A stretch of DNA of 20,000 nt from an uncultured virus (IMG/VR IMGVR_UViG_3300033998_000157) (IMGVR_UViG_3300033998_000157); one strand, 5' to 3'; counted from the stretch's first letter, positions 1 through 20,000 are shown. The notes: generated by a model not told the origin, from the letters alone. Translations and numbers: made by a program.

Positions 1-2
1 AT

Positions 3-1766
3 GTAGCTTTGACATTAGAGCCAACTTCTGATAATGGAGCAGTTGCTATATTATTCCCTTCATATGGAAACAAACCTTCTGATTTTGCATATATTGTGTA
101 TGATGAGGACTACTTAGATAATGGAGAAGGCGGAGCTTTAATATTAGGAGCAGAAAATGATGGAACTGGTAGTTCTGACCATGTAAGAGTAAAAAGTAGA
201 TTTGTAATTGAAGCAGATATGTCATCCTATGACCCAACAAACGCTTTTACAATCGAACAATCAAAAAATGGAACGGTATTAATGAATGTTCAAAGAGATG
301 GAAACAAATAGTATATTAAAGCAGGTACATATAATGTTATCTTTGAAGGTAGAAATACATGGGACGCTGATGGATCGACAATATATCCAACCATACATGG
401 TTCGCACCAAGATGAATGGGTAATGTTACATTTCCCACATGTTCCATATCTTGAAAATGGCAAAGGCGGTTATAATGGTGTTACATTTGGATAGAGGGTT
501 AGATTTGCAGCCAATGCTAACACACCCACTTACTGGGATTAGGGTATTTAGAGTTCAATAGGTTCTGATAAATTTTCTATTTCAAGAGGCGGAAGTTCTA
601 CATAGTTCTTGTAGATAGACAGTTCTGGTAAAGTAGGTATAGGCAAAAACTCACCTTCTAAAACATTAGATGTATCTGGTGATATTCAATAGAGTGGTCA
701 AATTATTTCAACCGTTTCTACTGGTACAGCTCCGCTTGCTGTAAGCAGTACAACAACAGTATCAAATCTTAGTGCAGATATGGTTGATGGAGTACATTAG
801 TCCAGCTTAGTTCGAAACGACACCACAACAACTATAAGTCACATAGGTCCATGGTTCAAATATACTGGTACGTCAGAAGTTATATTAGCAGAACACACTA
901 ACGGTGGTCCAGTTCCATTCTAGTTAAGAAAAACTGGAGATACTGGTACATCAGATTCATATGGAATTCTCCATTTAGATAGAGGGAAGTCTGAGAATGG
1001 CCAAGGTTCAAACTTGTATTTCAGATTACTTAATGGTTCTTCGTATGAAGAATTTGGTGGAATTGGTTAGAAAAAAGTTGATGATAATAATGGAGAACTA
1101 CAATTTTTGGTAAGAACTGGTGGGACAAGTAGAGTAAAAGTTGGATATTTTAACAAAGATAAATATTTGGTTTTAGAAAAAGGAATGTTAATAGACAACT
1201 CATAGCCTTATTTAAGAGTATGGAACACAAACAGCGGAACTTAGGATTTCTATTTTGGTGAAAGTTCAAGTAACGGATATGGACTACATTTATATTGGGA
1301 TAGTGGATATACCACATATTGGAAGTCAAGGCACGCTGGTACAGATACAAATGTATTTCATATAGACACACGTTCTCCGGACCTTATAATGGATAGGCAA
1401 ATTCAAACTAATACAGGTTCTTCTGGCGGTATTAAAATAGGTAATAGTATATTGTCTTCTGTAGATGGAAATGAATTAGTAATATACAAAACTGATCAGA
1501 TAAGAATATCAGATTCAACATCATGGGATTATAACCAATGGGCTGGAATTAAATATGAATCCTCTACAAGAAAAATGTATATAGGTGGTCCTTAGAGTTC
1601 TAAATTCGATAGTAATACAAACCCTCAAACAATGTAGGCTCTTGTATTAGATTAGGTTGATCAATTAGAAGCTTAGAATACAGATGCAACATTTAAATCT
1701 GTAACAGTTGGAAGTTTTCAAATTCAAGCCGATGCTGAATCGATAGATTTTGTGTATATGGGGTGA
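3..1766 (+). CDS. Tail fibre protein, proximal/gp34-like, 5'-truncated by the window edge; TAG-recoded (587 aa visible)
   Basis: One frame is open from position 3 to TGA 1764-1766, interrupted only by about 16 TAG codons. Fibre motifs: IDSSGKVGIGKNSPSKTLDVSGDIQ*SG and STGTAPLAVSSTTTVSNLSADMVDGVH*SS. The C-terminus VTVGSFQIQADAESIDFVYMG recalls the T4 gp34 C-terminus (from memory). Confidence 0.85.
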
Positions 1767-1770
1767 TTGA

Positions 1771-4671
1771 ATGAGTACAATTAAATCATCATTTGATAAT
1801 GGTGAATACTTTGCAGAAAAAGAAATTAATGAACAATAGCCTCCAATATATGATAGGTAGGTATTATACCTACCTTTTATTGGAGATTTCTTTACTGAAC
1901 ATAATTATCTTGAAGATATTGGAAAACAAAATTTTATTTCGTGGAGCGGTAATGGTTCTTATTGGCAAAACATGATTCAAGATGGTACATTTTTAGGTAA
2001 TCCAATATACAGAGTTGAAAAAAGCACATATGATAGCGGATATTTTTACGCTTATTGTCTTTCAGGACTCGAAAAAATATAGGATGCAGAAGAATATACA
2101 TTAACAGGTATTTTTAAAAGTTCAACATCAAACGAAAGCACATAGCCTTTGGCAAGTATTTATTAGGGCGGTGGCTGTCCTTGGACATAGGGTAATTATA
2201 CTTCTTAGTACGAAAGTGCAATATATAAATATTATTTAGGAAATGGTTGGTGGAGATATTTTTATACATTCAAAATAAATAGGGATAAAATAACAAATTC
2301 TTCATATATCAATAGGTTATATTTAGGATTTCATTGGTCTTGGTAGAGTGTTGGAACATATGTGTGGGGGACTTAGCCATAGTTATATTTAGGAAATACA
2401 TTGCATATTTATCAAGGAAATAAATCCGCTTATTCAATATAGAATATAAGAAAATATTACGATGGAATTGGATTTGAACAACCAACAACAAATCAAATTT
2501 CTACTTCAAATATGGAAGGATATGATATAGGCTATACAGGTAATGTATGTGGTTTTAGTAATAATTTTGATTCAAGGTTTGGATAGGGCAATTGGAGTAC
2601 AGAAATAGTATATTAGGATAATTGTCCTATCGATGGTATTACAAAAGCACAAAGAATAATAACAAAAAAGAGTGGATGGGGCGGATGGACTTCTGGAAAC
2701 ATCGGAAATACTTCTGGCGACATTACATATGGAGTACTTATAAGACTACATTATGGTGAAATACAATTCGGCGATTTGAATACATCAAGCAGGTTGTATA
2801 TAAATAAATCGTATTACCAACAACACAACAAAAAACTTGGAGAATGGTTATGGTAGGTAGATCATTTTTCAGGTACTTCAACAGGTAGGCATTTATATTA
2901 GAATGGGCCAACCAAAGCAGACATTTAGTAGGTATAGATTTATAACCAAAAAGAAACCGTTGGTTATGTGAATGGAAGTGCTGGCATTAGTAAATAGTCC
3001 TTGCCTACTGATATATTTGAAATGTTTAAAAATGAATTTTCTGTTTAGTTCATATATGAACCATTAAGCGAACACACATATGGCACGTATGAAGCTATCT
3101 TCACATTAAATTGGTGGACTGCTGACTATTCGCAAGATTGGGTTGGCATTTATAGAGGAAACGGATGGAGTAATTCCGATACAATTACTTTTGAAATAAC
3201 TGACGGAACAAGGAAATATGATCATAGCACTAATATTTCAGGCATCAATTCAAGATTAAATCATAAACTTTTTGTTTAGGTATCATATAGTGAATCTCAA
3301 AAAAGTTTTTCAATATATGTAAGAGATTTGACTTAGGGTGAAGATTTAGCAAGAGAACTAATATATTTAGAAAATGATTTTTAGTTTAGCCAAAATTGGA
3401 ATTATTAGTATCTTGGAACATTACATCAAGATTCTGGAGTACAAAATTAGAAATATTCGCATTTTATGGTATATAGCAAATATTATAATAGTTATGAATT
3501 AAAAAGATTAATTCCAAAAATATTCGGTGTAGATAAAAATAGCTTTACAAAAGTTAATTTAATAAAGGAACACGAAAACATTTTAGAAAGGTATGGTCCT
3601 ACTTAGTTTGAAACTGGAAAAAATGGTGGTATATGGAGTGCATATACTCAAACAAATTGTTCTGTAACATTAGAACCTGTTAGATTTAAGCAAAATCCAT
3701 ATTCATATTTTATATACAGAAAACCTAATATATCTGGTTCTGGCGGATGTGGCACTGGACAAACATGTAATTGGGGCGGATTGAAATTGTATTTTCCTGA
3801 CGACGGAACTTTTGAAGAAGAATAGACTTACAAACTGAGTTTTTGGTATAAAGGTTATTCTACTCATACAATATAGGTATATTTTTAGTATGAAGTAGGT
3901 TGGGCAAGTAAAGGCGTTGGATTATCAGCTTTAAATTTACCTTCTATCACCCACACATTTGATGATACCGATGGCTGGCAGTATTATGAAGAAACATTTA
4001 CAATACCAGAAGGATATATACATCAAACTGGAACTGATGGTAATACATATTTTTGTATGCGTGAATTTAAAATAGGATATACTTACACCAGCACAGATTC
4101 AGTTGGAACAAGATTATTTATTAATGATTTAACTATAGAAAAAATATCAGATGCTGGTTCTGGAAAAGACACATATGGTATTAAAAAAGACGGAATTTAT
4201 GTAAAACCATTATTTGAAGGATAGAAAAAACACAAAGTTTATTTACTTGGAACTTAGTATGACACGGATCCTTAGATACCAGTAACAGGAAATAGAACTG
4301 TTAGAATAGATGGAACAGATATTGTGAATGGAACAGGTAGAGGATTAGCATTAACTATATTTGACGAAAACTTCAATTTAGTTTCAAATACAATTTATGA
4401 TGTATATGGTGATGATACTTAGAGAACAAATTTGTAGAATTAGCTATAGTAGATAGGAGATACACAATATTGGTAGCTCACTTCATTCGATTAGGTAAAT
4501 CCAAATACAAACCTAACAAATCAGTTGCAAAAAATGGGTTCTAAAATATGGCCATTATCATATAGAAGTCCATATTAGTAGTTAGGACAAGGAAAACGTA
4601 TTCTTTATGAAGATGGCTCCGATTCGGCATAGTATTATAAACATAGATAGGTAATTAATGTAAGAATATAA
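1771..4671 (+). CDS. Large tail-fibre hinge/receptor-binding protein (966 aa) with lectin/CBM-like domains and a C-terminal ILEI/gp35-like domain; TAG-recoded
   Basis: ATG 1771 follows SD GGGGTGA; stop TAA 4669-4671; about 43 in-frame TAG and no TAA/TGA inside. LamG-like segment at ~3040-3510, CBM-like segment (TYKLSFWYKG...GWQYYEETFTIP...LFINDLTIEK), and C-terminal GRGLALTIFD...YDVYGDDT*RTNL*N*L**I...LTSFD*V...YRSPY**LG. Confidence 0.8.
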
Positions 4672-4684
4672 GGGAGGTCAAGAT

Positions 4685-7216
4685 ATGGCTGAACTAAAGG
4701 CAGGCACTACCATAGGTGGATATAGGTAGTTGCACGAAGGGATTTCTAATCCTACATTAAATTCAGATACAACAATTAATGCAAATTTAACAGTAAATGG
4801 AACAACTACTGTAAATGGTGAAATACATTTTGATGACGTTTCTCGATATTGGCTTTCAACTTAGACTAATTGGGGATTATATTGGGATACTTCAACCAAT
4901 CAATTAAAATTCAGAGGTTCTGGTTAGGATAAAGTAATAATAGATTTGGACGACGGAACCACAGAAATAAAAGGAGTTGCAAGCTTAACTTATTCATCTC
5001 AATATCCTTTAAACATTAATGGTTCTGATGACGGAAAAATTGTTTTGCAAGGATCTTCTAATCCTTACATTAGATTTAGAGAAGGAACAACTGATAAATA
5101 GTATATTCAATGGAGTTCAGGTGGTTATTTACAATTCAGAAATCAAGAAGATGGGTCCGGATTAAGAATTAGAGATTCAATTGATTTTACAAAAGACGGA
5201 ACAACATGGTATTCTGTTTGGCATTCTGGTAACCATGGTTCAAACAGTGGTCTTGATGCTGATTTGCTTGATGGACAACATGGTTCATACTATACAAATT
5301 AGTCAAATTTAAATGCTGGCACAGTTCCTACAGCAAGACTTTCAGGAACATATAATATAAGTATTTCTGGTAATGCTTAGACATAGAGTAAATTATAGAC
5401 TTAGAGAACGATTTCTTTAAGCGGAGACGTATCTGGTTCGGCAAATTTTGATGGTTCTGGAGACATAACTATATCGACAACTGTTTAGGATAATTCTCAT
5501 AATCATTAGATAAGTAATATAACATGGGCTTCGAGTCAAAATTTAAATTTAACATAGACTGAAAATAACTTAGAGTGGTCTATAGATATGAGACCAGATA
5601 GCTATACAGGAACTTACTTTCAAATATGGTCAAGTACTAAATCCACAGTGCTAAAAGCAGAACATGATACTGGTTATGTTACTATTCCATATAAATTGAT
5701 AATAGGTTCCACAAGCACTAATCATATAGAATTATATACAGAATCTGGCACATAGCAAATAGCAGATACATTTGCTGATACAACAACCTATAAAAACTAT
5801 ATATACTTTTATCAAGTTTCAACTTCAAATGATCCCGCATATATCATGCATGAAACATCTGACAGCGAAACAAACGAAGGAGTATTACATTTATGTCCTT
5901 CTGATGATAATGCATATGGAGATTATGTTTCTATACACGGAACTAATGACCCAGATGTATTAAAGCTACATACAGACGGAACTATAGAAGGAGTGAAGAG
6001 TTTAACTGCATCAGGAACAATTACATAGACAACTTTTACAGGTTCATTATCTGGTAATGCTTCAACTTAGAGTAAACTTGCTACTTAGAGGACAATTACA
6101 TTATCAGGTGCGGTAACTGGTTCTGCAAGTTTTGATGGCTCTTAGGATATTACAATTTCTACGTCAGTTAATCACAATCACGACAGTTCTTATGTAAATG
6201 TTACTGGTGATTCAATGTCTGGAACCCTTACTGTTCCTACTCTTCAAATTAATGATAGCAATACTAAACTTGTTGAAGGCGGTGAAAACTCCGTTAGAAT
6301 ACAAACAAATAGCGGATATATAGATATAGGTCCTCAAAATACATCTTGGTAGCACCTTGACACAGATAGATCTAATTTTTATTTTGGAAAAAGCATACAT
6401 GTAAATGGAAATATATATGCCTATAACACAAGTTATTATTTTAATGGAAGTTCATTTAATTTTCCTGGCGGAACTGTAAATGGAACGCAAAAAATCACAG
6501 GCGATTTGGATATGGATGAAGGAACAATTTACTATGTACGTGAAATTCGATTTGATTGGACATCAAGAAGTTATAATCAAGAATATCATTCTATTGTAAG
6601 TAAAAACGCATCTGGTACTTTATCTGATGCTATAAGAATTAATAGCTATGGTGACGTTGTAATTAATATAGATTCAAACAACAATGGTACTAATACATTT
6701 TCAATATATAAGCACGGAGGAACAGGTTAGATAAGTTCTTCATATAGGCTCTTCTATGTAGATGAAAGTGGTTATTAGTACGCAACTAAAGTATATGGTG
6801 CAGTATATAACGATTATTAGGAATATAGAATTGGAAAAGAAGAAATTGAGGCTGGATATATAGCTGTCACAGATAATGATGGAAAAATTAAAAAATGCGA
6901 TAAAGATAGAGCAAGAAATATTGCAGGTGTAGTTTCTGATGTATTTGGTTTTGCAATTGGAGAAGTAGATGGAGAAATCAATATACCGATATAGGTTGCA
7001 GGAAGAGTGTTAATTTATTAGTAGAACAAGGAAAAATTAAAAATTGGCGATTAGGTATGTTAGACAAAAGATGGACGAGCAAGAAAAATGAAATGGTGGG
7101 AAAAAATTATTTTCCCAGAATAGATTGTTGGATATGTTGATGAAATACCAGATTACGAAGAATGGGGTAACGATAAAATCAAAGTAAATGGTAGAGTTTG
7201 GATTAGATTGAGGTGA
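4685..7216 (+). CDS. Distal tail fibre protein (843 aa) with C-terminal intramolecular-chaperone/peptidase G2-like domain; TAG-recoded
   Basis: ATG 4685 follows SD GGGAGG; stop TGA 7214-7216; about 27 in-frame TAG. N-terminus MAELKAGTTIGG is T4 gp36-like. Also VWHSGNHGSNSGLDADLLDGQHGSYYTN*SNL, two GNAxTASKLATARTI-type repeats, and C-terminal VYGAVYNDY*EY...GVVSDVFGFAIG...PI*VAGRV...VNGRVWIRLR. Confidence 0.9.
5366..5508 (+). repeat. Tail-fibre internal repeat copy 1 (SGNA*T*SKL*T*RTISLSGDVSGSANFDGSGDITISTTV*DNSHNH)
   Basis: Protein-level repeat of 6050-6181, read directly from translation. Confidence 0.85.
6050..6181 (+). repeat. Tail-fibre internal repeat copy 2 (SGNAST*SKLAT*RTITLSGAVTGSASFDGS*DITISTSVNHNH)
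   Basis: Protein-level repeat of 5366-5508; GCT at 6080 aligns with TAG at 5396. Confidence 0.85.
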
Positions 7217-7220
7217 TTTA

Positions 7221-7847
7221 ATGTAGGCTGTAACTCCATACGTCACTTATGTAAGTCTTAGTATAAATACTGATAATGTTGTATATACATATAAAATAAC
7301 TGCAGATACATACTTCTATAAAATTTGGAACAGTTACACAGGGACCTGGAGTAGTTGGACAACAGTTGGAGCCGCATTAGATAATAGTCCTCGATACAAC
7401 CAAGCACAGCACACAATAACCGTTTCAAGAAGGACTGACGCTTAGGTTTTTTACACAATACATTTCAGAATGTTTGAATACGATTGGATGACTTGGACCG
7501 AATCAGGGAATTCTCATATTTTTAGAAGTTATTATATCTCTTTTTATTAGCCACCTCAATCTTCGTCAAACGTGTTAATAAGAGACGAAATATATAAATA
7601 TTTAATATGTAGTGGTAAATCAACATATTCAACAAACAATTTTCATAGTTCTATTGTTCAAGGATAGTTAGTAGATGATTAGCATAATATGACATTAATA
7701 GATACTGCCGCATAGGGTGGAAACATAATAAGATAGGACAATTATAAAGTATGGTATACTCATTAGCATTCAGGTTCTAATGCATATCGTGATAGAGGCG
7801 AATACGATAACGCAACATATTCAGATTCATACCCATGGCCATGGTAA
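7221..7847 (+). CDS. Hypothetical tail-associated protein (208 aa, Tyr/Trp/Thr/Ser-rich; possible adhesin); TAG-recoded
   Basis: SD GAGGTGA overlaps the previous stop; the gene starts ATG TAG GCT GTA; 8 in-frame TAG; ends YPWPW then TAA 7845-7847. Confidence 0.75.
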
Positions 7848-7861
7848 TTGGTGGTGAAATC

Positions 7862-8347
7862 GTGAAATATTTAAGAACAATATAGTATTCAATAAATACT
7901 GGTAATAAAAAACAATATTATGGTATAACAGGCACAGGTATAGAGTTAGAAATAAAATAGAATGACACAGAAATAATGCAAGTAATTGAACCAGGAAGTT
8001 ATGTAGTAGATGATCAATTAATCGAATTACAAAAACTAAACATATCAATTTTTCAATTGACATATGACAAAAACAAAATATATTTCAGATTGGGTGATAA
8101 CATGACAATAGAAGAATTTAATCAAATAATAAGTTATATTTAGAAAGTCACAAATTCAACAGAAAATGATATTATTCAACATTTTTGCAGATTTTTAAAT
8201 ACTACAGAAGACAAATTGTTTGATATACTAAAAAATGTTAATCAAGGTTTGTTTTTGGGTTTGAGTCATAAAGAACAGGATTTTAAGATATGTATAAACA
8301 CCAAAGAATTAGATAAGTTGGTGATAGATAATGCAAATCAAGTTTGA
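7862..8347 (+). CDS. Hypothetical protein (161 aa); TAG-recoded
   Basis: GTG 7862 follows GGTGGTGA; 3 in-frame TAG; TGA 8345-8347 overlaps the start of the next gene. Confidence 0.7.
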
Positions 8348-8582
8348 CGGAGAATATTATGACAACATGCACATTGCTTTTACACAAAATGAAAATATAG
8401 TGAGTATAATATTAGAAAAAGAAAAAGCAGATTTTACAACGTTATCAAATGAAGAATACGATATAATTTTAGTTGATGAAGAAAATAAAAAAGAAGAAGT
8501 ATTATTTACAGTTTCGAAAAATAACATAGTTAAAACATCTTTTGGCAATTATACAAAAATATATATTTATAAAGAACTTTAA
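8331..8582 (+). CDS. Hypothetical protein (83 aa)
   Basis: ORF track; SD-like GGTGA upstream; no TAG; TAA stop; fits operon packing. Confidence 0.7.
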   Translation: MQIKFDGEYYDNMHIAFTQNENIVSIILEKEKADFTTLSNEEYDIILVDEENKKEEVLFTVSKNNIVKTSFGNYTKIYIYKEL

Positions 8583-8594
8583 GGAGGTTAAAGT

Positions 8595-8969
8595 ATGATT
8601 ATTAAAGCTTTTGATGTACAAAACAAGGAAATTGCAACAGTTCAATAGGATCCAGCGTATGTAAAGTATAATCTTCAATACGAAACCGAATCTGGAAATT
8701 TTAAAGGATTCTTTGAAATTGTGCGTGGTGAAGCAAATATGCTTTCATTATTAAAAGTTTTAAAGTATTCTGTGCAAAAGAACTTATCACATTTAATAGT
8801 TGAAAATGAAGATGGAACACAATTATATGGTGTATCAATGTTATTCGCAGAAGCTCAAACAATAAATATCCATGAAGGTCACTTATACTTCAGAATGGGT
8901 ATAATTATTACTCCAGAAAATATGGAAGAATACGCACAATTCTTAGAAGCACACGGATTATATCAATAA
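8595..8969 (+). CDS. Hypothetical protein (124 aa); one recoded TAG
   Basis: Strong SD AAGGAGG at 8581-8587 and ATG 8595. TAG at 8646-8648 joins it in frame to track ORF 8721..8969. TAA stop. Confidence 0.75.
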
Positions 8970-8978
8970 TAAAATATC

Positions 8979-9010
8979 AAAATGCCCCCACAATATGGGG
9001 GTATTTTATT
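8979..9010 (+). terminator. Intrinsic terminator closing the tail-fibre operon
   Basis: AAAATGCCCCCA-caata-TGGGGGTATTTT stem-loop with a T-rich tail, just after the 8969 stop. Confidence 0.7.
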
Positions 9011-9023
9011 AGGAGATGTTGCT

Positions 9024-9773
9024 ATGAATATTTTTGGATTAGAAATTGAAATGATGTTGCCTGAAATTGTTTTGCTCGAACCTCCTGTTCAAAATATACC
9101 GATAAGGTATGTAACCACAAACATGCTAAAAAACATGCCTTCGAATTTGTTTAATATTACGTTAGTCAAAGAATATAATTTTACAGTAGACGTAATTTTT
9201 AAATTCAAAGATATCGAATATAAAAAAACAATGCCTAAAAATTGGTGGAATTCAGTGAACAAATTTTTAGATAAGAATAATTGGAAATTATAGTTTCCAT
9301 TGCATGAGATGTTATCAGATAGTGAAATATATGAATTAGCATATCAATATTATACAGGACAGTAGAGTGACAGAATCAAAAGAATATATACAGGTTACAA
9401 ATTATTAGACGAATATTTCAAAGAATGGAATTTTGCGTGGCATTATGCTCATAATGGATTAAAAAATGAAAAATTGCATAACAAAAATATATTTAGAGTT
9501 GAGTATGACGGAAGCATAATTAAAGGTGATACCGAAATATTTAAGGGTAAATATTATGGAATAGAACTAATAACACCAATTTTTAATAAGGAATCAATTA
9601 TAGAAGTATATTCGAAAGTATTAGATTTTATTCTCATAACCTTGATATCTATTTACAAAATCGTCTTCATTATCCCACTCAGGATAGAAATACAACGTTT
9701 CGCCGTTTTGAAGTTTAAATTCGATAATGGATATATCTCTATATAGTGTCAAATAATTTCGTATAGTCAATGA
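9024..9773 (+). CDS. Putative amidoligase (COOH-NH2 ligase type 2)-like protein, N-terminal half only and probably truncated; TAG-recoded
   Basis: SD AGGAG and ATG 9024. TAG at 9291 and 9363 join two track ORFs. Motifs FGLEIE, FRVEYDGSI and GIELITPIF are present. After ~9620 the frame runs antisense into the next gene, to TAG 9744 or TGA 9771. Confidence 0.55.
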
Positions 9774-10013
9774 TTCATCTTGTATTTCATGATTAACATA
9801 AAAATTTGTATGTAAATCTAATGCTTCTGTTGATATATCGATATATCCTTTATTTATCCACTTTTCTTCCTCTAATTTTCCTCTTTCATTTAATGTATAC
9901 TTTTCTTTTACATCTTCAAAACGAATATCTAAAATAAATTCTTTTGGTATAACACAATAATCGCCATTTTCAAATACTAATTCAATCCATTTAAAATCAA
10001 ACTCATTAAGCAT
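9621..10013 (-). CDS. Hypothetical phage protein (130 aa)
   Basis: ORF track; SD AAGGAGGG upstream; TAA stop; acidic globular composition. Confidence 0.8.
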   Translation of the reverse strand: MLNEFDFKWIELVFENGDYCVIPKEFILDIRFEDVKEKYTLNERGKLEEEKWINKGYIDISTEALDLHTNFYVNHEIQDESLTIRNYLTLYRDISIIEFKLQNGETLYFYPEWDNEDDFVNRYQGYENKI

Positions 10014-10189
10014 TCTATCCCTCCTTAAAACTATTCTAATTCAATTATACACTTGAAAAATACAATTAATTGACTACGTATTAATATACAAATAACTGCT
10101 CACTGCCTACCTTTTTTATGCTTTTATTTAGCCCCGCCCCGCGCACGCGAATAAAAATAAGGTCGATTATCGAAGTTGCGAACGTGGAA

Positions 10190-10219
10190 TTGACATGAGG
10201 GTCGTGAAGGTGGTATAAT
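10190..10219 (+). promoter_or_regulatory. Consensus sigma70-type promoter with extended -10
   Basis: TTGACA 10190-10195, 18-bp spacer, TG-G-TATAAT with -10 at 10214-10219, 41 nt upstream of ATG 10261. Confidence 0.85.
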
Positions 10220-10260
10220 AGTAAAAAGCGGGTGAGCGATTATTTATAGGTGGTGATATT

Positions 10261-11586
10261 ATGGCTAAATTTAAAAAAGCTCCTCCTTATTACACATTGT
10301 TGGATCATATAATTAAATTAAATCGAAATCATGGGGTTGATTTGTTTACTATTTTCTACTACTGGGTCATGCAATGCGAGTTATACGAAGATGAGGACTT
10401 TGTATCCAGCGTCTATAGCGTCATTAATGAAAAATTTGAGGGCTTTAATAAGGCAAATAATATTAATGCTATTATAATATTTTTCATCGGAGTTATAAAC
10501 ACATATAGTAAATACAAGAGCCTTCCTGATTACATTCGACCTATAATGGCTAAAGCTTTCTATAGGTTAAGTATTTATGTTCAAGAAGGCGCTAAGTTAC
10601 AGAATAAAATTACTTTTGTTGAAGCTGTGGCTTCTAAAGATATTAATCAAAAATATTCTCCACGTGGTTATTTCATTTTGTCAAATTTGTTCTATAAGAA
10701 AAATACGAAGGAATTAATAGAAGTTATAGAATACGATGTTTCTGAAGAAGAAAAAGAAGAACCTTTTAAGAATCATAAAGTGTTTGATTATGATGAAATA
10801 GCTTTAATGGTTCATAGTGTGCTTACTTCGAAAAATCAAAATGAACCTTTAATTAAAAATATACAAGAAATGGTTGAAGAAATTTCAGATGAAGAATTGA
10901 ATGATGTTGTTGGAAACGAACCTTCTATGATTAAAAAATTGTATGCATATACAAAATTATTGATAATTGTCGCTAAAGAAAACGATAAGACAATTAAAGA
11001 ACTCGAAATTGATAGGAATAGATTAGATAATGCTATTAGAGGTATTATAGCTTCACAAAGACACGATAAAACATTCGAAGAATTAGAAAATAGAGTTGCT
11101 TATTTAGAAAATTTATTAGCAGAGAAGAATAAAGAAATTCATCAATTAAGGAATGATGAAAAGTCTAAAACTATAGAAAAATTAAATAAGAAACTAAGCG
11201 AATTGCAAGAAAAGTATATTGCTCTTAGCGAAGAAAACAACTCAAGAAAAGAGCTCATCAATGAATTAATGGAACAAGATAGATATTTTATAGAAGAAGA
11301 TATTATGACACCCTTAGAAGAACCAATAGACGTCATATACTTTGGATTAAGAAATATGGAACTCTATAATTATCTGAAACAATTCAATATATTGCTATAT
11401 ACTGTGAATCCAACTGTTACCCCAGATTACGTTCCAGAAGACAAACCTATTGTATTCAATATAGATGTTGCTAAACATGTGGTTTGGTGGAAAATTAAAC
11501 ACCTAAAACCATTACTTGTAACTGGTTCGAATGCAGAAAGATTAGGTAATATGATATATAGATTTGTAAAAGAGAGGTGGCAATAA
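10261..11586 (+). CDS. Coiled-coil protein (441 aa) with a possible DUF2325-like C-terminal alpha/beta domain
   Basis: ORF track; SD AGGTGGTGA; long E/K/L heptad segment at ~aa 240-340; C-terminal IDVIYFG...IVFNIDVAKH. The domain call is from memory only. Confidence 0.75.
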   Translation: MAKFKKAPPYYTLLDHIIKLNRNHGVDLFTIFYYWVMQCELYEDEDFVSSVYSVINEKFEGFNKANNINAIIIFFIGVINTYSKYKSLPDYIRPIMAKAFYRLSIYVQEGAKLQNKITFVEAVASKDINQKYSPRGYFILSNLFYKKNTKELIEVIEYDVSEEEKEEPFKNHKVFDYDEIALMVHSVLTSKNQNEPLIKNIQEMVEEISDEELNDVVGNEPSMIKKLYAYTKLLIIVAKENDKTIKELEIDRNRLDNAIRGIIASQRHDKTFEELENRVAYLENLLAEKNKEIHQLRNDEKSKTIEKLNKKLSELQEKYIALSEENNSRKELINELMEQDRYFIEEDIMTPLEEPIDVIYFGLRNMELYNYLKQFNILLYTVNPTVTPDYVPEDKPIVFNIDVAKHVVWWKIKHLKPLLVTGSNAERLGNMIYRFVKERWQ

Positions 11587-12041
11587 TGTTTTACCTCAAC
11601 GAGTCGTTTATAATGGTACCTAAATCAGTAATGATTTTTGCTTTAACTGTTAGGCCAGCAAATACAGGACGTATTTATCTTTACCTGTATTCAAACTCTC
11701 TTGCTCATTCGTGGAAAATTGGTGTTGCAAAAAAATACACAAGTTTAATTTCATACAGACATATATCGAAGAAGATGGAGATAGCATACGGAATAGTGGA
11801 AGACTCGATACATCAATTAATCAAAATCAATGCTATTAAAAAAGTTGAACAAAATAATAAAGGCACTGTGTATAAAGTAAATGTACCTGAATGGTACGAC
11901 GAAGAAAAAGGAGAATGGCATTTTGAAGATCCAGAAAAGTCAAGAACATTCTATGCTATAGATGAAGATATAGATACATTAAAACATATTAAAACCAGAC
12001 TTAAAGAAGATAAAATACCACTATTTAAAAAGATATTTTAA
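11586..12041 (+). CDS. Winged helix-turn-helix DNA-binding protein
   Basis: Start moved to ATG 11586 (TAATG coupling, SD GAGAGGTGG; the track uses GTG 11577). SYRHISKKMEIAYGIVEDSIHQLIKINAIKKVEQNNKGTVYKV fits a wHTH pattern. Confidence 0.65.
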   Translation: MFYLNESFIMVPKSVMIFALTVRPANTGRIYLYLYSNSLAHSWKIGVAKKYTSLISYRHISKKMEIAYGIVEDSIHQLIKINAIKKVEQNNKGTVYKVNVPEWYDEEKGEWHFEDPEKSRTFYAIDEDIDTLKHIKTRLKEDKIPLFKKIF

Positions 12042-12042
12042 A

Positions 12043-12062
12043 AAGGGGCAATTAAGCCCCTT
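12043..12062. terminator. Probable bidirectional terminator between convergent genes
   Basis: AAGGGGC-aattaa-GCCCCTT flanked by A and T runs, between the stops at 12041 (+) and 12061 (-). Confidence 0.7.
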
Positions 12063-12342
12063 ATATTTTTAAGTTGTATTTGTTTATCAGTTTCATTATT
12101 TTGTTGAATAGTTCTTCTGTATAATCCTTGTCGTTGATGTAAATGTGTATGTATCCAGAACTTCCGTCAATAATAACGAAATGATTATAATTCTGTTTTC
12201 TCAATTCGTCATCAATTATGTTCTTACTTACAGTCATATATTCAACATACTTTCGTGAGTCAAATTCTCCTTCAAAAATATAATCAATCCCTTCTAAAAT
12301 CGGTATTAATTCAAATAGTATATGGTGAAAAGTTAAACTCAT
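12061..12342 (-). CDS. Hypothetical protein (93 aa)
   Basis: ORF track; SD GAGGTGG; TAA stop. Confidence 0.7.
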   Translation of the reverse strand: MSLTFHHILFELIPILEGIDYIFEGEFDSRKYVEYMTVSKNIIDDELRKQNYNHFVIIDGSSGYIHIYINDKDYTEELFNKIMKLINKYNLKI

Positions 12343-12353
12343 ATAACCACCTC

Positions 12354-13361
12354 TTAGTATAGAACTAAATATACATCAATATTTTCACTGAATACTAATT
12401 CAGATAACATCAACATATTTGCTATCGCATTTATTGTATAGTTGATATATTCATCAAATGTTTTATCGCTTTCTTCGTAATAACAAATTTTTATTATATC
12501 ATCATCAAATACTATATATACATCAGAATTTTCTGGAAAATATACATGCGGATTATATATGTTTCGAGAATGTGTTTTATCTGCTATAGCTGTGTAATTG
12601 TAGAATTTACCAATAGTATTGTGAATATTTTTTGTGCTTAACATATCCAATGTTATATAATACGGCTCTTCTTCTCCCCTAAAAACCTTTAAAGGCGGTT
12701 TTTTCATAGCCATATTAATCATATTATTAATCAAACATATATTATTCTGGTAATATGTGCTTTTTGCTAAAGAAAATACTAAGTCTCTATGTGTTTTAAG
12801 AAATTTATCTATTTTAGGAATCATGAATAATAATGGGTTTTCAGAAATTATGTGTTGAGAATTTACTTTTATTAATTCGTTCAACATTCTGAAATTCACA
12901 ATCAATTCATCTGAATTTTTAATGCTATTTACTATGTTCTCGAAAATATGCAAATCTTCTCTAACCTTGTTTATTGTATTAAAATCCCTAAAATCATTTT
13001 CTTTTATTGATTCCTTACACAATTCAAGTCTCGCAATTTCATAGTTCAAAAATTCTTGGAAAAATAATATATGTTGTAATACTGTCAATCTTTTTAATTG
13101 CAATAATTCGCTTTTCAAATTCATGAAGAAGTCATATTCTTCTTTTTCCACTTTAAGCAAAATGACATCTTCATCAATTCCGTATTTGCGTTTTATAAAT
13201 TTCTTTCTATTAGTAACCGTATAAGAACACAAAAATTCAGTTTCCTCTTCTATTTTGAAATTTTGTCGTTCTTCTTCTGATTTAAAATCTCTAATATAAA
13301 ATCGTATATTATTATTGTAGTTATACATTTCTTCTTGTGGTTTTTGTTTAGCAAAAAACAT
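12354..13361 (-). CDS. Hypothetical protein (335 aa)
   Basis: ORF track; SD AAGGAGG; TAA stop; no family recognised. Confidence 0.8.
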   Translation of the reverse strand: MFFAKQKPQEEMYNYNNNIRFYIRDFKSEEERQNFKIEEETEFLCSYTVTNRKKFIKRKYGIDEDVILLKVEKEEYDFFMNLKSELLQLKRLTVLQHILFFQEFLNYEIARLELCKESIKENDFRDFNTINKVREDLHIFENIVNSIKNSDELIVNFRMLNELIKVNSQHIISENPLLFMIPKIDKFLKTHRDLVFSLAKSTYYQNNICLINNMINMAMKKPPLKVFRGEEEPYYITLDMLSTKNIHNTIGKFYNYTAIADKTHSRNIYNPHVYFPENSDVYIVFDDDIIKICYYEESDKTFDEYINYTINAIANMLMLSELVFSENIDVYLVLY

Positions 13362-13381
13362 TATTGCGCCTCCTTATTATA

Positions 13382-13405
13382 ATATCCAGCCTCACGGCTG
13401 GACAT
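13382..13405 (-). promoter_or_regulatory. Stable GNRA-loop hairpin upstream of the RBS of 13361
   Basis: Minus strand ATGTCCAGCC-GTGA-GGCTGGATAT, followed by TATAATAAGGAGG; no U-tract. Confidence 0.45.
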
Positions 13406-13473
13406 AGTTACCTTTTTAATATATTGTATGAAAAACTGAACTATTTGGAGAATATAGAACAAGAAATGTTAGG

Positions 13474-13659
13474 TTAACTTTTTAATATATTGTATGATAA
13501 ACCTAATATTGTATATACAGATAAGAATACTAAAAGTACTTTAACGTAAAACGGGATATAATATGGTATAACAGAAAATGCTGTCAATATAGTTAGTATA
13601 GATATTGCTATTATTAATAGCATTATGTCCGAAAACACTAATTGCATCATCTTTTTCAT
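13474..13659 (-). CDS. Small membrane protein, two predicted TM helices (61 aa)
   Basis: ORF track; SD GGAGGG; two hydrophobic stretches. Confidence 0.7.
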   Translation of the reverse strand: MKKMMQLVFSDIMLLIIAISILTILTAFSVIPYYIPFYVKVLLVFLSVYTILGLSYNILKS

Positions 13660-13671
13660 ATTATCCCTCCA

Positions 13672-14916
13672 TTAAATATGCAATAAGAATTCTGGTTCTG
13701 TTTTCATTATATATTTAATAATTGATTCTTTGAATTTTTTATCTGTTTCTTCTTTATATATATCATATAATTTAGAACTATAACCATTTATTTTTAAAGT
13801 TCTTAATATATTAACAGTTTTCTTTCTTAATGGTATTGGATTTCTTTTATCTGATGCAAGTTCATATAACTTATCTGCATAATCTTTTAACGCAAATTTC
13901 TTTATCACATCAATGGCAAATGATTTCATTTTTAAAGAATTAGATTTCAACATATCTTCGATTTTTTCGACAAGCATATAATCTTGAAAATGTAACAAAT
14001 ATCTTATAGCATAATCATATTCTTCTTTAAACACATATTGTCTTGCCTCATTTATGTGATTTGGATCATCTTTAAGCATAGCGATTTTAAATTTTAAATT
14101 TACTATTTTAGGGTCTTGTATTTCTTCAATTTTAGCTATATCGCTTTCTCTAATAACTTCAATACTATATTTTGATAAAACACTTGTAATTAATATTCTT
14201 ATTAATTCTACATCTTCTTCTTTATCCATTTGATCAATATAGAATTTTTTACCAAATTCAAGTGGTAAATCAGTAATATGTTTTATAACTAATTTCTTTA
14301 ATTTATTAGGTAATTCATCATATATAGGCACTAATAAATTATATATAGATACAGTATCATGTTGTTCTACAAACCTATTAATAATTATTTCCTTTGTTTT
14401 CTCATTAACATATGGATTTAATATTACTTCTTTTTCATTGCCTTCATTAATTATGCTAATTATTACTGGATTAGTTTCGTCTTTAAACAATTCATCCAAT
14501 CTATGATAATCATACATTTTTAATAATCTAGCTAATCTAATTCTTACTTTTTCATTTGAATCTTTTGACAATTTTTCTATTTCTTCAAAAGACAACAAAT
14601 CATTTTCAACTACTTTTTCTAATGCAAATAATCTAACGCTGATTTCTGGATCATATATAAATTGTTTTAATTCCAGATTATCTATCATTTTGTTTTTGTT
14701 GCAATATTTTAACGCTTCTAATCTTACTTTTCCATTATCGTGATTAATAAATTCTTTAACACCTGTAATTATTGTTTCCATATTAGATAGTTTTTTAATT
14801 GCTAATGCTATATCAATTGGATTTTCACTTTCTAACATTTTAGAGTATTTTAAATATTCAGTTCTTGTTGCTTCTTCCATAAGTTCTTTATACTTTTCAA
14901 TTATTGGATTTGCCAT
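13672..14916 (-). CDS. HEAT-repeat protein (414 aa)
   Basis: Repeated HEAT-like motifs: NHDNGKVRLEALK, YDPEISVRLFALE, KDSNEKVRIRLAR. SD AAGGGGG. Confidence 0.85.
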   Translation of the reverse strand: MANPIIEKYKELMEEATRTEYLKYSKMLESENPIDIALAIKKLSNMETIITGVKEFINHDNGKVRLEALKYCNKNKMIDNLELKQFIYDPEISVRLFALEKVVENDLLSFEEIEKLSKDSNEKVRIRLARLLKMYDYHRLDELFKDETNPVIISIINEGNEKEVILNPYVNEKTKEIIINRFVEQHDTVSIYNLLVPIYDELPNKLKKLVIKHITDLPLEFGKKFYIDQMDKEEDVELIRILITSVLSKYSIEVIRESDIAKIEEIQDPKIVNLKFKIAMLKDDPNHINEARQYVFKEEYDYAIRYLLHFQDYMLVEKIEDMLKSNSLKMKSFAIDVIKKFALKDYADKLYELASDKRNPIPLRKKTVNILRTLKINGYSSKLYDIYKEETDKKFKESIIKYIMKTEPEFLLHI

Positions 14917-14928
14917 GCAAACACCCCC

Positions 14929-15159
14929 TTAATTTTTAACACCCTCAAGTGATTGCTTTTGTAATAATTTCTGTACTTCTTCTATATATTCTTTCATTCT
15001 TTTATCGATATAATTTTCTAATTCTTTTTGATCAACATTTAACTTTTCTACTAAAAACTCTAAGATATAACTTATTACTTGTAAGTTTTGGTTTGTTTTA
15101 ATTTGTAATTGTGCCAAACTATCAAGTTCTTGTTGTAATGTTTTCATCTTATCATCCAT
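14929..15159 (-). CDS. Small coiled-coil hypothetical protein (76 aa)
   Basis: ORF track; SD GGAGGTG; TAA stop. Confidence 0.7.
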   Translation of the reverse strand: MDDKMKTLQQELDSLAQLQIKTNQNLQVISYILEFLVEKLNVDQKELENYIDKRMKEYIEEVQKLLQKQSLEGVKN

Positions 15160-15161
15160 AT

Positions 15162-15371
15162 TTACACCTCCGAATTCTCAAATTTTTTCTCTAAAAATTC
15201 TGCTAATTCAAACAAATCTATATTAGCATCAGAAATTATAAAATCTACAATTGTATATAAAACCATTATTGAGTTATACATATCATTTAATTGTATAGAT
15301 ATGTTGTTTATATCATTATCTATTTTATTAACTTTGTTTTCTAGTTCTGTAATACGTTTGTTGTTAAACAA
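15162..15371 (-). CDS. Small coiled-coil hypothetical protein (69 aa)
   Basis: ORF track; TTG start with GGAGGTGG SD; TAA stop. Confidence 0.65.
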   Translation of the reverse strand: MFNNKRITELENKVNKIDNDINNISIQLNDMYNSIMVLYTIVDFIISDANIDLFELAEFLEKKFENSEV

Positions 15372-15372
15372 A

Positions 15373-15414
15373 TCCTACCACCTCCTATATAAATATATTA
15401 TACTGGTGGTAGGA
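15373..15414 (-). promoter_or_regulatory. Inverted repeat overlapping the RBS of the 15371 gene (RBS-occluding hairpin and/or polC terminator)
   Basis: TCCTACCACC (15414-15405) pairs with GGTGGTAGGA (15382-15373). The loop contains TATAAT and the stem is followed by TTTGTTT. Confidence 0.55.
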
Positions 15415-15423
15415 ATAAATAAC

Positions 15424-18400
15424 TTAAACAAACACTGTTGGTGCGTCTGATGTTAATCCTTCCATTGCTCCGATTTCTTGTAAAATTGCAATATGATTTT
15501 TATTAGCCTTAACTCTCTTTTTAAAGTCTTCAACAGACATAAATTGTAATTTATTTCTTTCATTAACTATATTATTAGCTACAGATGTTCCTAATCCTTT
15601 TATTGTATTTAAAGGTAATAATATTTTATTGTTTTTAACAATAAATTTTTCTGCTTCGCTTTCATATATATTTGGTAATTCAAATTCAATATTATGTTGT
15701 TTAGCATCAAATATTATTTCTAATATACTTGCATCTTTTTTATCCTTAGCATTTTTAGTTCTTAAAAGTTTAAATATTGTATCAACCAATGTTTTTGAAT
15801 CCATCATATAATAATCAAAAGTTACTGATGATTTTTTAGATAAAATTGCACTATAAAATGCTGCTGGATAATATCTTTTAAACCATGCTATTCTATAACT
15901 CATCATTACATATGCTGCCGAATGTGCTTTTGGGAATAAATAACTTATCTTTTTACATGCATTTATATACCATTCTGGTACTCCGTGTGCTTTCATTTCG
16001 TGTATGTCTTCATCTCTTAATCCTTTGCCTTTTCTAACTCTTTCCATAATATCAAATGATAATTTTTTATCTACACCTTTAGAAATAAGGTAATTCATTA
16101 TATCGTCTCTTGCCGTGATAATTTCCTTTAATGTTGCAACACCTGATTGTACTAAAATCTCTTCATTTCCATTCCAAATATTTTCACCATGAGCTATACC
16201 TGCTATTCTAACTAATTCATCAAAAGTAGTCGGTCTTGTGCTTTCTAATATTCTTCTTACAAATGGAGTTCCAAATTCTGGAATACCAATACTATCAATC
16301 TTACTAATTGGTTCTAAATCATAATCTGTTGAATTGAATAATTTCATAACTTCTTTATCATCCATTGGAACAGTTAAAGGATCTACTCCTGTATATTCTT
16401 GTAAATACTTTAAAATTGTAGGATTTAAATGACCTAAAGCGTCTAATTTTACTATATCATCGTGTATATGTTCGTAAGCTATATGAGTTGTAAATGCTTG
16501 TGATGTGTCATTAGCAGGATGTTGATATGGTGTAAAATCAAACACTTGATATTTCTTTGGTACTATTAACAATCCTCCAGGATGTTGAGATGTACCTACT
16601 TTAACTCCTTGTAATCTTTTTGCTATATATTCAACTGTAGCGTCTGATATCTTTCCATTTGTACTTGCATAATCTCTTGCTATTCCAAATGCAGTTTTTT
16701 CTGCAATTGTAAGTATTGTTCCAGCTCTAAATACTTTATCTTCACCAAACACTTGTCTAACATAATCATGTGCCTTTGCTTGGAATTCATCTGAAAAATT
16801 TAAATCTACGTCTGGTACTTTATCTCCTTCAAATCCAACAAATGTTTCAAACGGTATATTTAAACCTCTTTTATCCATTTTTACATTACATTTTTCACAA
16901 TATTTATCTTCTGCATCATATCCAGTTGGAGCATCTACAAATTCAGTATGTTTACATTTAGGACAAACATAATGAGCAGGCATAGGATTAACTTCTGTAA
17001 CTCCTATTAAATGAGCAACCAAAGAAGAACCTACCGAACCTCTTGAACCAACAATATATCCATTGTCTTGTGAATACTTAGTAACAATTTGTGCTAATAA
17101 ATATAATTCAGCAAATCCGTGTTTAATAATTGAATTAAGTTCTTTGTTCACTCTTTCTAAAATAGCTTTATGTGGATTATCACCGTATTCTTCTTTAAGT
17201 CGTCTCAACGTTAATTCTTTCAATTGTTTGTCAGAATTTTCAATTCCTGGCGGTATTAATATTCCATTAACTATTTTTATATTTTCAATATCTTCTATTA
17301 ATTGTTTTGGGCCATTTAATACTATATTCATCGCCACATTTTTGTCATTAACTATATCTTGAATTTCTTTTATTAATTCATCTGTTCTAAAAAAGTAAGC
17401 TTCTATATCTTCTTTATTTCTTGACTTTGATTTATTACTTTGAGTTAGTGATTTAAATACTATTCTATCGTACTCATCTAAATAATGTGCATTAGATACT
17501 GCAATAATAGGTTTTTTCATCTTTTTAGATAATTCAAACTCATATTTATATATATTTTTCGATGTTTCTGGATTAACTGATGTTTTTGCTGGTGCTATTT
17601 CTATATAATCATATAATTCTTTATAATGATCTATATTTCTATCATTAAATTCATTGTTATATATTTCTTCGTATAATGTACTACCTTCTAATCCTGTTCC
17701 ATATAATAATCCTTTTTTATATTCTTTTAATTTATTTTCTGGTATTGCTGGAATACCATGATATAAATACTTTGAATGTGCATCTGAAATCATTTTATAT
17801 AAGTTTTTCAAACCTTCTTGTGTTTTAACTATAACTGATACTTGTATTATTTTTCTATCTACTTCATTCTGTTTTCCATATTCATTTAATTCGTTTGCTG
17901 TAAAAATTTTTAATTTAAAAGTTCTTTCTAATAATTTCATAAATATCATTGCTAATACTTTAGCATCTTCATCAGCTCTATGATGATTAAAATCTCCCAA
18001 TTTAAATGTTTTTGCTAATGATGCCAAACCATGTCTTTTTCTGTTGTTCATAACTGTTCTTGATAATCTTAATGTATCTAAGTAAGTCATATTAATTTCT
18101 TCTATTGCATTTATAAAAGAATAGTCAAAATCCGCATTATGAGCTACAAGCACAGTTCCTTTAATAAACTCTTTGAATTTTGGCCAAACCTCTTCTATAT
18201 ATGGTGCATTTTCTACCATATCTTGTGTTATACCAGTGATTTGAGTTGAAATTTTACTAATTTGCTTTCTTGGTTTAACCATTGTATGAAAACTATCTAT
18301 AATCATACCATTTTCTACTTTAACAGCACCAATTTCAATTATTTCATCATATTTTGGACTCGTGCCAGTGGTTTCTAAATCAAACACTGTGTATGTTTTC

Positions 18401-19209: not shown

Positions 19210-19305
19210 TATAGGCACCTCCTCTATGTGAAAGCACTCCTTTGTAATATTGTATTATTATTTAAAAGAAATAACTTGTATATATCCCTATATATTACAT
19301 TTTTT

Positions 19306-19333
19306 GAAAAATAAAGCACCACTTATGTGGTGC
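19306..19333 (-). terminator. Intrinsic terminator after the 19338 gene
   Basis: Minus strand GCACCAC-ATAA-GTGGTGC followed by TTTATTTTT. Confidence 0.75.
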
Positions 19334-19337
19334 CTCA

Positions 19338-19832
19338 TTATTTCTTTTTAACAACTATTATTTTCACATCACCATCTTCATCAATTCCTTCATTAGCAAG
19401 TTTCTTTATTTGTTCTATAACTTCTTCATCATCTATTATCTCTTTTAATGTTTTTTCAATTGGTTTAAAATCATCATCTTTTTCAATTTTGCGTGACTCT
19501 TTAACCACTTCTTTAAACATTAAATATTCTTTTGAAAGCCTATTTATCATATCATTGGATAATTGTTCAAAGTTTTTATAAACACCAGAAGTAAAAGTTT
19601 TTAATATATCATCAAATTCTTTGTTTCTTAAATCAATTTTCAATGAATCTTCTAAATATTCAGAAAAAGCTTCTAGAAAATTTTCTACAAATAATTTACC
19701 TATTTCTTTGATGTTTTTATTTAGCATATTCATTTCTTCATTAACAATTTTATCAAATTTGTTTAAATCAATTTTATCGAAAATATCTTCACCAAATTCT
19801 TCTTCTAATAACTTTTTTAAATTTTTATCCAT
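19338..19832 (-). CDS. Hypothetical acidic helical protein (164 aa)
   Basis: ORF track; SD GGAGGTG; TAA TGA stop. Confidence 0.8.
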   Translation of the reverse strand: MDKNLKKLLEEEFGEDIFDKIDLNKFDKIVNEEMNMLNKNIKEIGKLFVENFLEAFSEYLEDSLKIDLRNKEFDDILKTFTSGVYKNFEQLSNDMINRLSKEYLMFKEVVKESRKIEKDDDFKPIEKTLKEIIDDEEVIEQIKKLANEGIDEDGDVKIIVVKKK

Positions 19833-19882
19833 CCTAACACCTCCAACTATTATTTACTTTATTATATTTTATTTTAAAACTA

Positions 19883-20000
19883 TGCAAGAAGACACTCACC
19901 TCTATAGGTGGGTGATGAATTGCACCTATAGAACACATAAACCCTTCCTAAACACGTATGGCTTAACCAATTCAGTTTTAACTGGCTTACAAATCTCTGC
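19883..20000 (-). mobile_element. Probable end of an IS200/IS605-family element (iscB/isrB/tnpB type), continuing beyond the window
   Basis: Minus strand TGCAATTCATCACCCACCTATAGAGGTGAGTGTCTTCTTGCA is an imperfect hairpin resembling IS200/IS605 subterminal ends I recall from low-GC anaerobes. It is preceded by a short open frame (..KPVKTELVKPYVFRKGLCVL*). Confidence 0.5.

Follow-up and report, generated by a model that had tools for sequence, protein, structure and literature searches.

Candidate reassignment of the amber codon TAG to alanine in the tail-fibre module of an uncultured subsurface phage

Which amino acid does a phage insert at TAG when its structural genes carry about a hundred of these codons in frame? 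We addressed this question for a 20,000-nucleotide (nt) stretch of DNA from an uncultured virus (IMG/VR IMGVR_UViG_3300033998_000157; the whole stretch is referred to as the window), in which positions 3 to 9773 hold a block of structural genes that are interrupted by TAG throughout. The initial annotation had proposed that this block reads TAG as alanine (Ala), a meaning other than the glutamine (Gln) assumed in public translations. We find that TAG is present in the DNA, in frame, confined to this late block and located at alanine positions, and comparison with homologous proteins makes it very likely that the codon means alanine. On the whole, 3-9773 probably represents the late, tail-fibre module of a low-GC subsurface phage that has not been cultured, with TAG read as alanine late in infection by a predicted tRNA-Ala(CUA).

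Under genetic code table 11, positions 1-8330 contain only one open reading frame (ORF) of at least 80 amino acids (aa) (3-311, with an alternative TTG start at 9). With TAG as a sense codon, the region resolves into eight abutting ORFs on the + strand that span 3-9773 and hold 101 in-frame TAGs:

Gene 1, 3..1766, + strand: final 587 codons of a fibre-like structural protein of 851 aa; 16 TAG; stop TGA
Gene 2, 1771..4671, + strand: putative receptor-binding or tail protein of 966 aa; 43 TAG; stop TAA
Gene 3, 4685..7216, + strand: tail fibre of 843 aa; 27 TAG; stop TGA
Gene 4, 7221..7847, + strand: 208 aa, no assigned function; 8 TAG, including codon 2; stop TAA
Gene 5, 7835..8347, + strand: 170 aa, no assigned function; 3 TAG; stop TGA
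Gene 6, 8331..8582, + strand: 83 aa, weak match to phrog_20490; no TAG; stop TAA
Gene 7, 8595..8969, + strand: 124 aa; 1 TAG; stop TAA
Gene 8, 8982..9773, + strand: 263 aa; 3 TAG; stop TGA

Across the 3,244 codons of these genes there is no internal TAA or TGA; the four TAA and four TGA codons in frame 0 are all terminators. The other two frames contain 123 and 146 TAA and 29 and 140 TGA, and the open frames are not due to chance, because TAA and TGA occur in frame 0 only as terminators and many times off frame. Coding density was expressed as the cover by stop-to-stop frames of at least 100 codons, computed for each reading of the stop codons. Over 1-9800 this cover rises from 0.24 to 0.97 with TAG as sense, against 0.45 with TGA and 0.76 with TAA as sense, and over 9800-20000 it is unchanged at 0.90 with TAG as sense. 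The TAGs are distributed along the genes (6, 10, 12, 13, 7, 11, 5, 7, 8 and 22 by successive tenths of gene length), and no 'amber gate' at the start of genes (positional gating) was seen. The nucleotide composition immediately 3' of TAG (A 35, G 28, T 27, C 11) is similar to that found after codons in general. The layout is largely the one that the initial annotation had described: its estimate of about 100 TAGs and its per-gene counts (about 16, 43, 27, 8, 3, 1 and 2-3) match ours, the lack of internal TAA and TGA is confirmed, every tail-fibre motif that it quoted with TAG was found, and the comparison of coding density under code 11 and with TAG as sense, which it had suggested, gives the increase described above. 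Its picture of read-through genes that abut with proper Shine-Dalgarno (SD) and start signals holds for the abutment and in part for the signals, since an SD-like GGAGG, GAGGTG or GGGGTG precedes four of the seven visible starts (1771, 4685, 7221 and 8595).

The same codons are recovered from assembled sequencing runs. In the Logan contigs of run X1, the stretches 1-5900 and 5980-9800 are identical to the window, and pieces from run X2, which belongs to the same study, show a single G>A at 6359, outside any TAG. With two assemblies in agreement, an isolated error of assembly is ruled out. The sequencing runs containing this DNA carry the label subsurface metagenome, and a contig of 135,633 bases is on record as including a fragment identical to gene 3, so the phage contig probably measures about 135 kilobases.

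The composition of the late genes is informative about the meaning of TAG. Their 3,244 codons comprise 101 TAG and 101 GCN codons, which would be 202 alanine codons if TAG is alanine, taking alanine from 3.1% (GCN) to 6.2% with the 3.1% of TAG; glutamine without TAG already amounts to 2.7% (82 CAA and 6 CAG). Gene 2 has 18 GCN codons and 43 TAGs, as the initial annotation had counted (about 18 and 43, with alanine going from about 2% to about 6%), and alanine makes up 1.9% of its residues if TAG is left out and 6.3% if it is counted.

We then scored TAG against homologous columns. Relatives were gathered for genes 1-3 (gene 3, n = 120; gene 2, n = 109, by exhaustive HMMER search; gene 1, n = 51), and the queries were aligned with X at each TAG so that the codon could not steer the alignment. 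For each codon, a Codetta-like score was obtained as the sum over columns of the residue log-odds relative to background, a column being usable when it held at least five residues; the test covers the 86 TAGs of genes 1-3. In the test against 279 aligned homologs, with 4 self copies and 18 Gln-rich proteins (Gln at least 4.5%) dropped to give a clean set, 69 of the 86 TAG columns were usable, and alanine scored +33.2, followed by valine (-44.4), serine (-56.0), leucine (-56.5) and glycine (-61.0). Alanine was the top residue in 31 of these 69 columns (threonine in 8, glycine in 7), and the residues pooled opposite TAG were Ala 909, Ser 218, Gly 189, Thr 171 and Gln 51. When the columns were resampled by bootstrap, alanine came first every time (2000 of 2000), by a margin of at least 23.9. 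When only the 4 self copies were removed (71 TAG columns), alanine scored +32.9, glutamine -3.9, valine -51 and serine -55; when six Gln-translated relatives were removed as well, glutamine dropped to -65. Gene 3 alone (27 TAG columns) gave alanine +24.4 with leucine next at -15.3, and gene 2 alone (33 TAG columns) gave alanine +13.1 with valine next at -26.1.

As a control, all 48 sense codons with at least five columns decoded as in table 11. Because known residues anchor an alignment whereas X does not, we also masked the A, S, G, Q, T, V, E and N of the queries to X, one residue at a time, and re-aligned; all eight were recovered as themselves. Masked GCN-alanine columns scored 0.58 nats per column with alanine on top in 28 of 58, and TAG columns in the same run scored 0.54 nats per column. 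In this comparison, which is one of alignments, the TAG columns behave like the phage's ordinary alanine columns. The Codetta-type test that the initial annotation had called for thus decodes TAG as alanine in genes 1-3, and its inference is supported by the comparative tests, which all point to alanine (+33.2 against -44.4 for valine).

Other comparisons point in the same direction. Gene 3 matches 13 PHROG families, of which 8 are labelled tail (7 tail fibre and 1 minor tail), and among the 11 families for which bit scores were compared, 8 scored best with TAG as alanine. For gene 2, which matches phrog_38688, the single family compared gave 59.9 with alanine, 56.4 with serine, 52.9 with glutamine and 49.4 with glycine; the totals rank alanine, glutamine, serine and glycine in this order. 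Gene 3 carries the motif GNA.T.SKL.T.RTI twice, and where one of its internal repeats reads KL-TAG-T, the other reads KL-GCN(A)-T. Proteins verified to be in the standard code were compared as well. In one of them, the decoration protein Dec of phage L (PDB 6e3c_C), alanine occupies three of the four aligned TAG positions of the fibre motif and tyrosine the fourth. The C-terminal part of gene 2 resembles Bacillus phage proteins annotated as receptor-binding or minor structural, and gp51 of Bacillus phage Basilisk has alanine at 3 of 11 aligned TAG columns of gene 2. Five cultured phages, likewise standard-code comparators, together have alanine 18 times, serine 9 times and glutamine once at aligned TAGs, a count that serves as illustration, as it comes from overlapping high-scoring segment pairs whose columns are not independent.

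The remaining late genes yielded few matches. Searches of the late genes against Pfam and NCBIfam returned sub-threshold matches only, which do not help to read the code; among them is a match of gene 8 residues 131-213 to Amidoligase_2, past the first two TAGs of that gene. Gene 5 had no family match in the PHROG, Pfam or NCBIfam searches. Codon 2 of gene 4 is TAG, at 7224-7226 (Met-TAG-Ala-Val...), so the first peptide bond of its product cannot form without a decoder. The last 153 bases of gene 8 (9621-9773) overlap a convergent gene on the - strand (9621-10013, phrog_2349), and the true 3' end of gene 8 is uncertain because the only stop-like codon within the overlap is a TAG at 9753.

The second half of the window differs from the late block in its use of TAG. 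Three features are relevant here:

Contrast block, 9621..19832, both strands: eight genes with no in-frame TAG in 2,995 codons, all with stop TAA
PolC-type DNA polymerase III alpha, 15424-19218, - strand: RNase_T exonuclease inside the PHP domain
Sigma-70-like promoter, 10190-10219, + strand: TTGACA, 18 nt, TG-TATAAT (extended -10), 12 of 12 consensus matches

The recoding is concentrated in the tail-fibre block at 3-9773, and the block with the PolC-type polymerase is in the standard code. The contrast block has 122 GCN-alanine codons and not a single TAG, and the late block uses TAG for 50% of its alanine codons; out of frame, the contrast-block genes do contain the trinucleotide, 118 times in one frame and 50 times in the other. 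None of the 16 genes in the window terminates in TAG. Being without TAG, the contrast-block genes are readable by an unmodified host ribosome. The promoter, identified by consensus match only, lies 40 nt before the TAG-free gene at 10261-11586 and, judged by its sequence, fits expression of the TAG-free genes by the host polymerase (early). The best near-full-length matches of the PolC-type polymerase in a phage record collection are at most 39% identical.

We propose that TAG is interchangeable with GCN as an alanine codon in the late genes. The TAG-free, replication-side genes would be read first by the unmodified host ribosome, and the late genes would be finished only after TAG becomes readable as alanine. 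The decoder would be a phage tRNA with a CUA anticodon on a tRNA-Ala body; we lean towards such a phage-encoded tRNA-Ala(CUA). Host alanyl-tRNA synthetase (AlaRS) would charge it with alanine, because AlaRS recognises G3:U70 and not the anticodon, and no new synthetase would be needed. Release factor 1 (RF1) would be absent, outcompeted or blocked in late infection: with 99% read-through per codon, about two thirds of the chains of gene 2 would be completed across its 43 TAGs, so read-through per codon would have to be near-complete and RF1 out of play. Further searches turned up no recoded relative at the DNA level: an exact 40-mer of the window had no match in viral or metagenome contigs; scans guided by the polymerase protein, by gene 2 aligned to its relative and by the fibre fragment of a relative found only standard-code relatives or nothing; degenerate patterns (conserved peptides, and the fibre motif with TAG at alanine) had 0 matches in viral and genome contigs; and the phage record collection yielded only distant standard-code matches.

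The split between the two halves of the window also bears on a different explanation, namely that the host itself reads TAG as alanine and the phage simply follows the code of its host, with no switch of its own. That no suppressor tRNA is seen in the window and that no gene (0 of 16) ends in TAG would both fit such a host, and 43 TAGs in one gene would be most easily read without RF1 activity on UAG. However, eight genes with 122 GCN-alanine codons and no TAG, next to a block in which TAG has a 50% share, are the pattern of a phage that is obliged to start in a standard-code cell, and the available part of the Codetta screen of more than 250,000 genomes lists no TAG=Ala code in bacteria. We therefore regard a host code of this kind as unlikely. 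A weak hint at the type of host or environment comes from P0245 (in the cluster of P0125), a standard-code protein annotated in an assembly of Thermosipho sp. and homologous to the C-terminal half of gene 2 at 44% identity.

Several observations weigh against alanine, or against the mechanism proposed for it. In the column test, gene 1 taken by itself is uninformative, its 9 poorly aligned columns giving the highest scores to valine (+1.7) and arginine (+1.6) and its homologs spanning only about 17% of the sequence; alanine is below 5% in 13 of the 69 clean TAG columns; and gene 2 codon 389 (2935-2937) is glutamine in 7 of 12 clean homologs, which may reflect a plain substitution or a CAG-to-TAG change (the TAG at nearby codon 387 sits on alanine). 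The column test covers 86 of the 101 TAGs, the other 15 belonging to genes 4, 5, 7 and 8, and the sole relative found for gene 4, P0297, has Q, S, T, S, K, T and Q at its seven aligned TAGs, which makes this gene uninformative. Among the profile matches, phrog_5181 favours glutamine by 17 bits (109.4 against 92.6), phrog_5342 favours it by 3 bits (65.8 against 62.8), a sub-threshold match of gene 2 to CBM_4_9 (a carbohydrate-binding module) also favours it (22.7 against 19.5), and phrog_356 scores best with serine (58.7). The two sequencing runs come from one study, X1 possibly being the source sample, and do not amount to independent confirmation. A search of the 20,000-nt window for tRNAs and other RNA families returned none, so that the decoder is wholly inferred. 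Finally, TAG differs from any GCN codon by two or three bases, and the path leads via TCG (serine) or GAG (glutamate); a 50:50 use of TAG and GCN at conserved alanine sites requires many multi-step changes, for which AT pressure is one possible driver in a genome of about 30% GC. Avoidance of GpC was rejected as a driver for the window, as GpC is not depleted (odds ratio 1.02 for the whole, with 0.89 in the late block and 1.17 outside it).

Some of these points would be accommodated if TAG stood for another small residue (serine, glycine, threonine or valine) that resembles alanine in alignments. Serine, glycine and threonine are indeed the next most frequent residues opposite TAG (218, 189 and 171), and phrog_356 prefers serine. 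Yet they follow at a distance from 909 alanines, the log-odds of valine, serine and glycine are far below zero (-44, -56 and -61 against +33 for alanine), glutamine ranks above serine and glycine in the PHROG totals, which alanine leads, and masked serine, glycine, threonine and valine columns were recovered as themselves, unlike the TAG columns. A small residue other than alanine is thus very unlikely.

Glutamine is what public translations assign to TAG, as in code 15 of crAss-like, Lak and other recoded phages. An 851-aa protein in a public collection, P0246, equals gene 1 of the window and has glutamine at 16 of 16 TAG positions. Among the relatives of gene 2 the closest is P0124, which is 58% identical from end to end and contains 8.0% Gln and 1.7% Ala; it has glutamine at 26 of the 43 gene 2 TAGs, or at 27 by another alignment. 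In addition, glutamine is the runner-up in the column test as long as the Gln-bearing relatives are kept (-3.9), two PHROG families (phrog_5181 and phrog_5342) score higher with it, codon 389 of gene 2 aligns with it in clean homologs, and the published surveys, in the available part of the Borges preprint, give only TAG to glutamine as a meaning of this codon in phages that differ from the host code. The glutamines of these relatives are themselves peculiar, however. Six relatives have glutamine at 40% or more of the TAG columns, and on the columns where our phage has a GCN-alanine they carry glutamine at 4/30, 7/22, 5/23, 4/29, 3/18 and 0/18; in one of the six, it is the commonest residue at GCN-alanine columns. 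Real glutamine seldom replaces alanine. Of the homologs of at least 300 aa, 17 of 267 have a glutamine content of 5.5% or more. When the glutamines of these proteins were masked, alanine was for the most part the top residue of their columns in low-Gln homologs: alanine led in 32 and glutamine in 2 of 86 columns for P0008, in 29 and 1 of 68 for P0010, and in 26 and 2 of 48 for P0021. In comparison, 40 random low-Gln proteins gave 64 columns led by alanine and 154 by glutamine of 662. At least eight separate relatives (distinct representatives at 90% identity) carry such Ala-like 'glutamine':

P0004, P0008, P0010, P0021, P0023, P0030, P0048 and P0124: fibre proteins, 6-10% Gln

These Gln-rich relatives look like code-15 mistranslations of phages that share TAG=Ala, because their glutamine falls on GCN-alanine positions and on the alanine columns of homologs. 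The second place of glutamine in the column test would thereby be explained by a few code-15-translated relatives. Even with the Gln-bearing relatives kept, alanine beats glutamine by 37 nats; without the six, glutamine is at -65, and the clean-set pool holds 51 glutamines against 909 alanines. Under TAG=Gln, gene 2 would be composed of 7.2% glutamine and 1.9% alanine. Taken together, glutamine as the meaning of TAG in the window is highly improbable. Seen with alanine as its meaning, the relatives suggest that there is reasonable likelihood of a whole clade of environmental phages with TAG as a major late alanine codon, a tRNA-Ala(CUA) and RF1 sidelined, whose proteins are stored with glutamine in error.

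That the TAGs are never translated, because the genes are decayed, because they are an assembly or sequencing artefact or because RNA editing turns them back to GCN, is barely conceivable, given that 3,244 codons in genes with intact frames and starts hold 101 TAGs and not one internal TAA or TGA, that two assemblies agree on the TAGs, that many TAG positions are conserved in relatives, and that editing from TAG to GCN would take two or more base changes per codon.

Phages that recode a stop codon are known, and so are algal mitochondria with UAG=Ala; TAG=Ala in a phage would combine the two. In the literature searched, which left most subscription journals outside its scope, there was no TAG=Ala in any phage, and the word alanine is absent from the phage-recoding papers picked from it. 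As far as the available parts of the sources go, recoded phages use TAG as glutamine (code 15), in crAss-like, Lak and related phages, or TGA as tryptophan (code 4) (10.1101/2021.08.26.457843; PMC9523058), and the Borges preprint (10.1101/2021.08.26.457843) gives only these two changes in phages that differ from the host code, with a model in which early genes are in the host code and late genes need a phage suppressor. The phage studied here resembles these alternatively coded phages in having many in-frame TAGs (101) and a coding density that is restored when TAG is read as sense. It also has the TAGs in structural and late genes with replication genes in the standard code, a low GC content and no gene that ends in TAG, and the expected logic is likewise that a phage suppressor tRNA switches the code late. 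It differs from them in the amino acid, alanine here and glutamine there, and its TAG columns do not lie on conserved glutamine (51 against 909 alanines pooled). Unlike the change from CAG to TAG for glutamine, TAG is not one mutation away from any alanine codon, and yet it makes up half of the late-block alanine codons. The habitats differ as well (subsurface metagenome here, gut there).

The same codon with the same meaning is found in the mitochondria of Hydrodictyaceae and Neochloris (Sphaeropleales), where, in the available part of the report, UAG is alanine and the tRNA(CUA) is closest to tRNA-Ala(UGC) (PMC6821328); the initial annotation had rightly named green-algal mitochondria as the other place where TAG=Ala occurs. 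In both cases the meaning is inferred from conserved alanine positions, on which the TAGs of the window also fall, and decoding by a tRNA(CUA) is the mechanism that we propose for the phage, whose own tRNA is a prediction. In the algae the code applies to the whole organellar genome and goes with changes in the mitochondrial release factor, whereas here a virus has recoded one gene block. The window does not originate from green-algal mitochondria, its genes being phage tail fibres and a phage PolC-type polymerase. According to the parts of the reports available, tRNAs that combine G3:U70 with the anticodon CUA place alanine at the amber codons of E. coli (PMC5389517), and CUG is alanine in some budding yeasts (PMC8629427). 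In the yeasts and with the engineered suppressors alike, a tRNA-Ala body captures a foreign codon, AlaRS being blind to the anticodon. The yeast change is sense-to-sense in a eukaryotic nucleus and the suppressors are laboratory constructs, so neither is a natural stop reassignment in a phage.

If correct, our reading has consequences for how phage proteins are translated in public databases. Annotation tools apply code 15 automatically once TAG is recoded, according to the available part of Cook et al. (PMC11210395), and the error is already in public protein sets, in P0246 and in at least eight relatives with Ala-like 'glutamine'. If TAG=Ala is true for the clade, the wrong residue stands at about 3% of late-protein positions in public databases, and such mistranslations degrade homology searches, structure predictions and comparisons of receptor-binding proteins. 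The finding raises the questions of how TAG took over half of the alanine sites and of how RF1 is silenced for 43 read-throughs, and it makes a specific prediction for the decoder tRNA, which should combine G3:U70 with CUA. Current practice recognises two kinds of stop-codon recoding in phages, TAG=Gln and TGA=Trp, to which the window would add a third meaning. The choice of amino acid would then not be tied to the one-mutation routes from CAG to TAG or from TGG to TGA, alanine being reachable because AlaRS ignores the anticodon.

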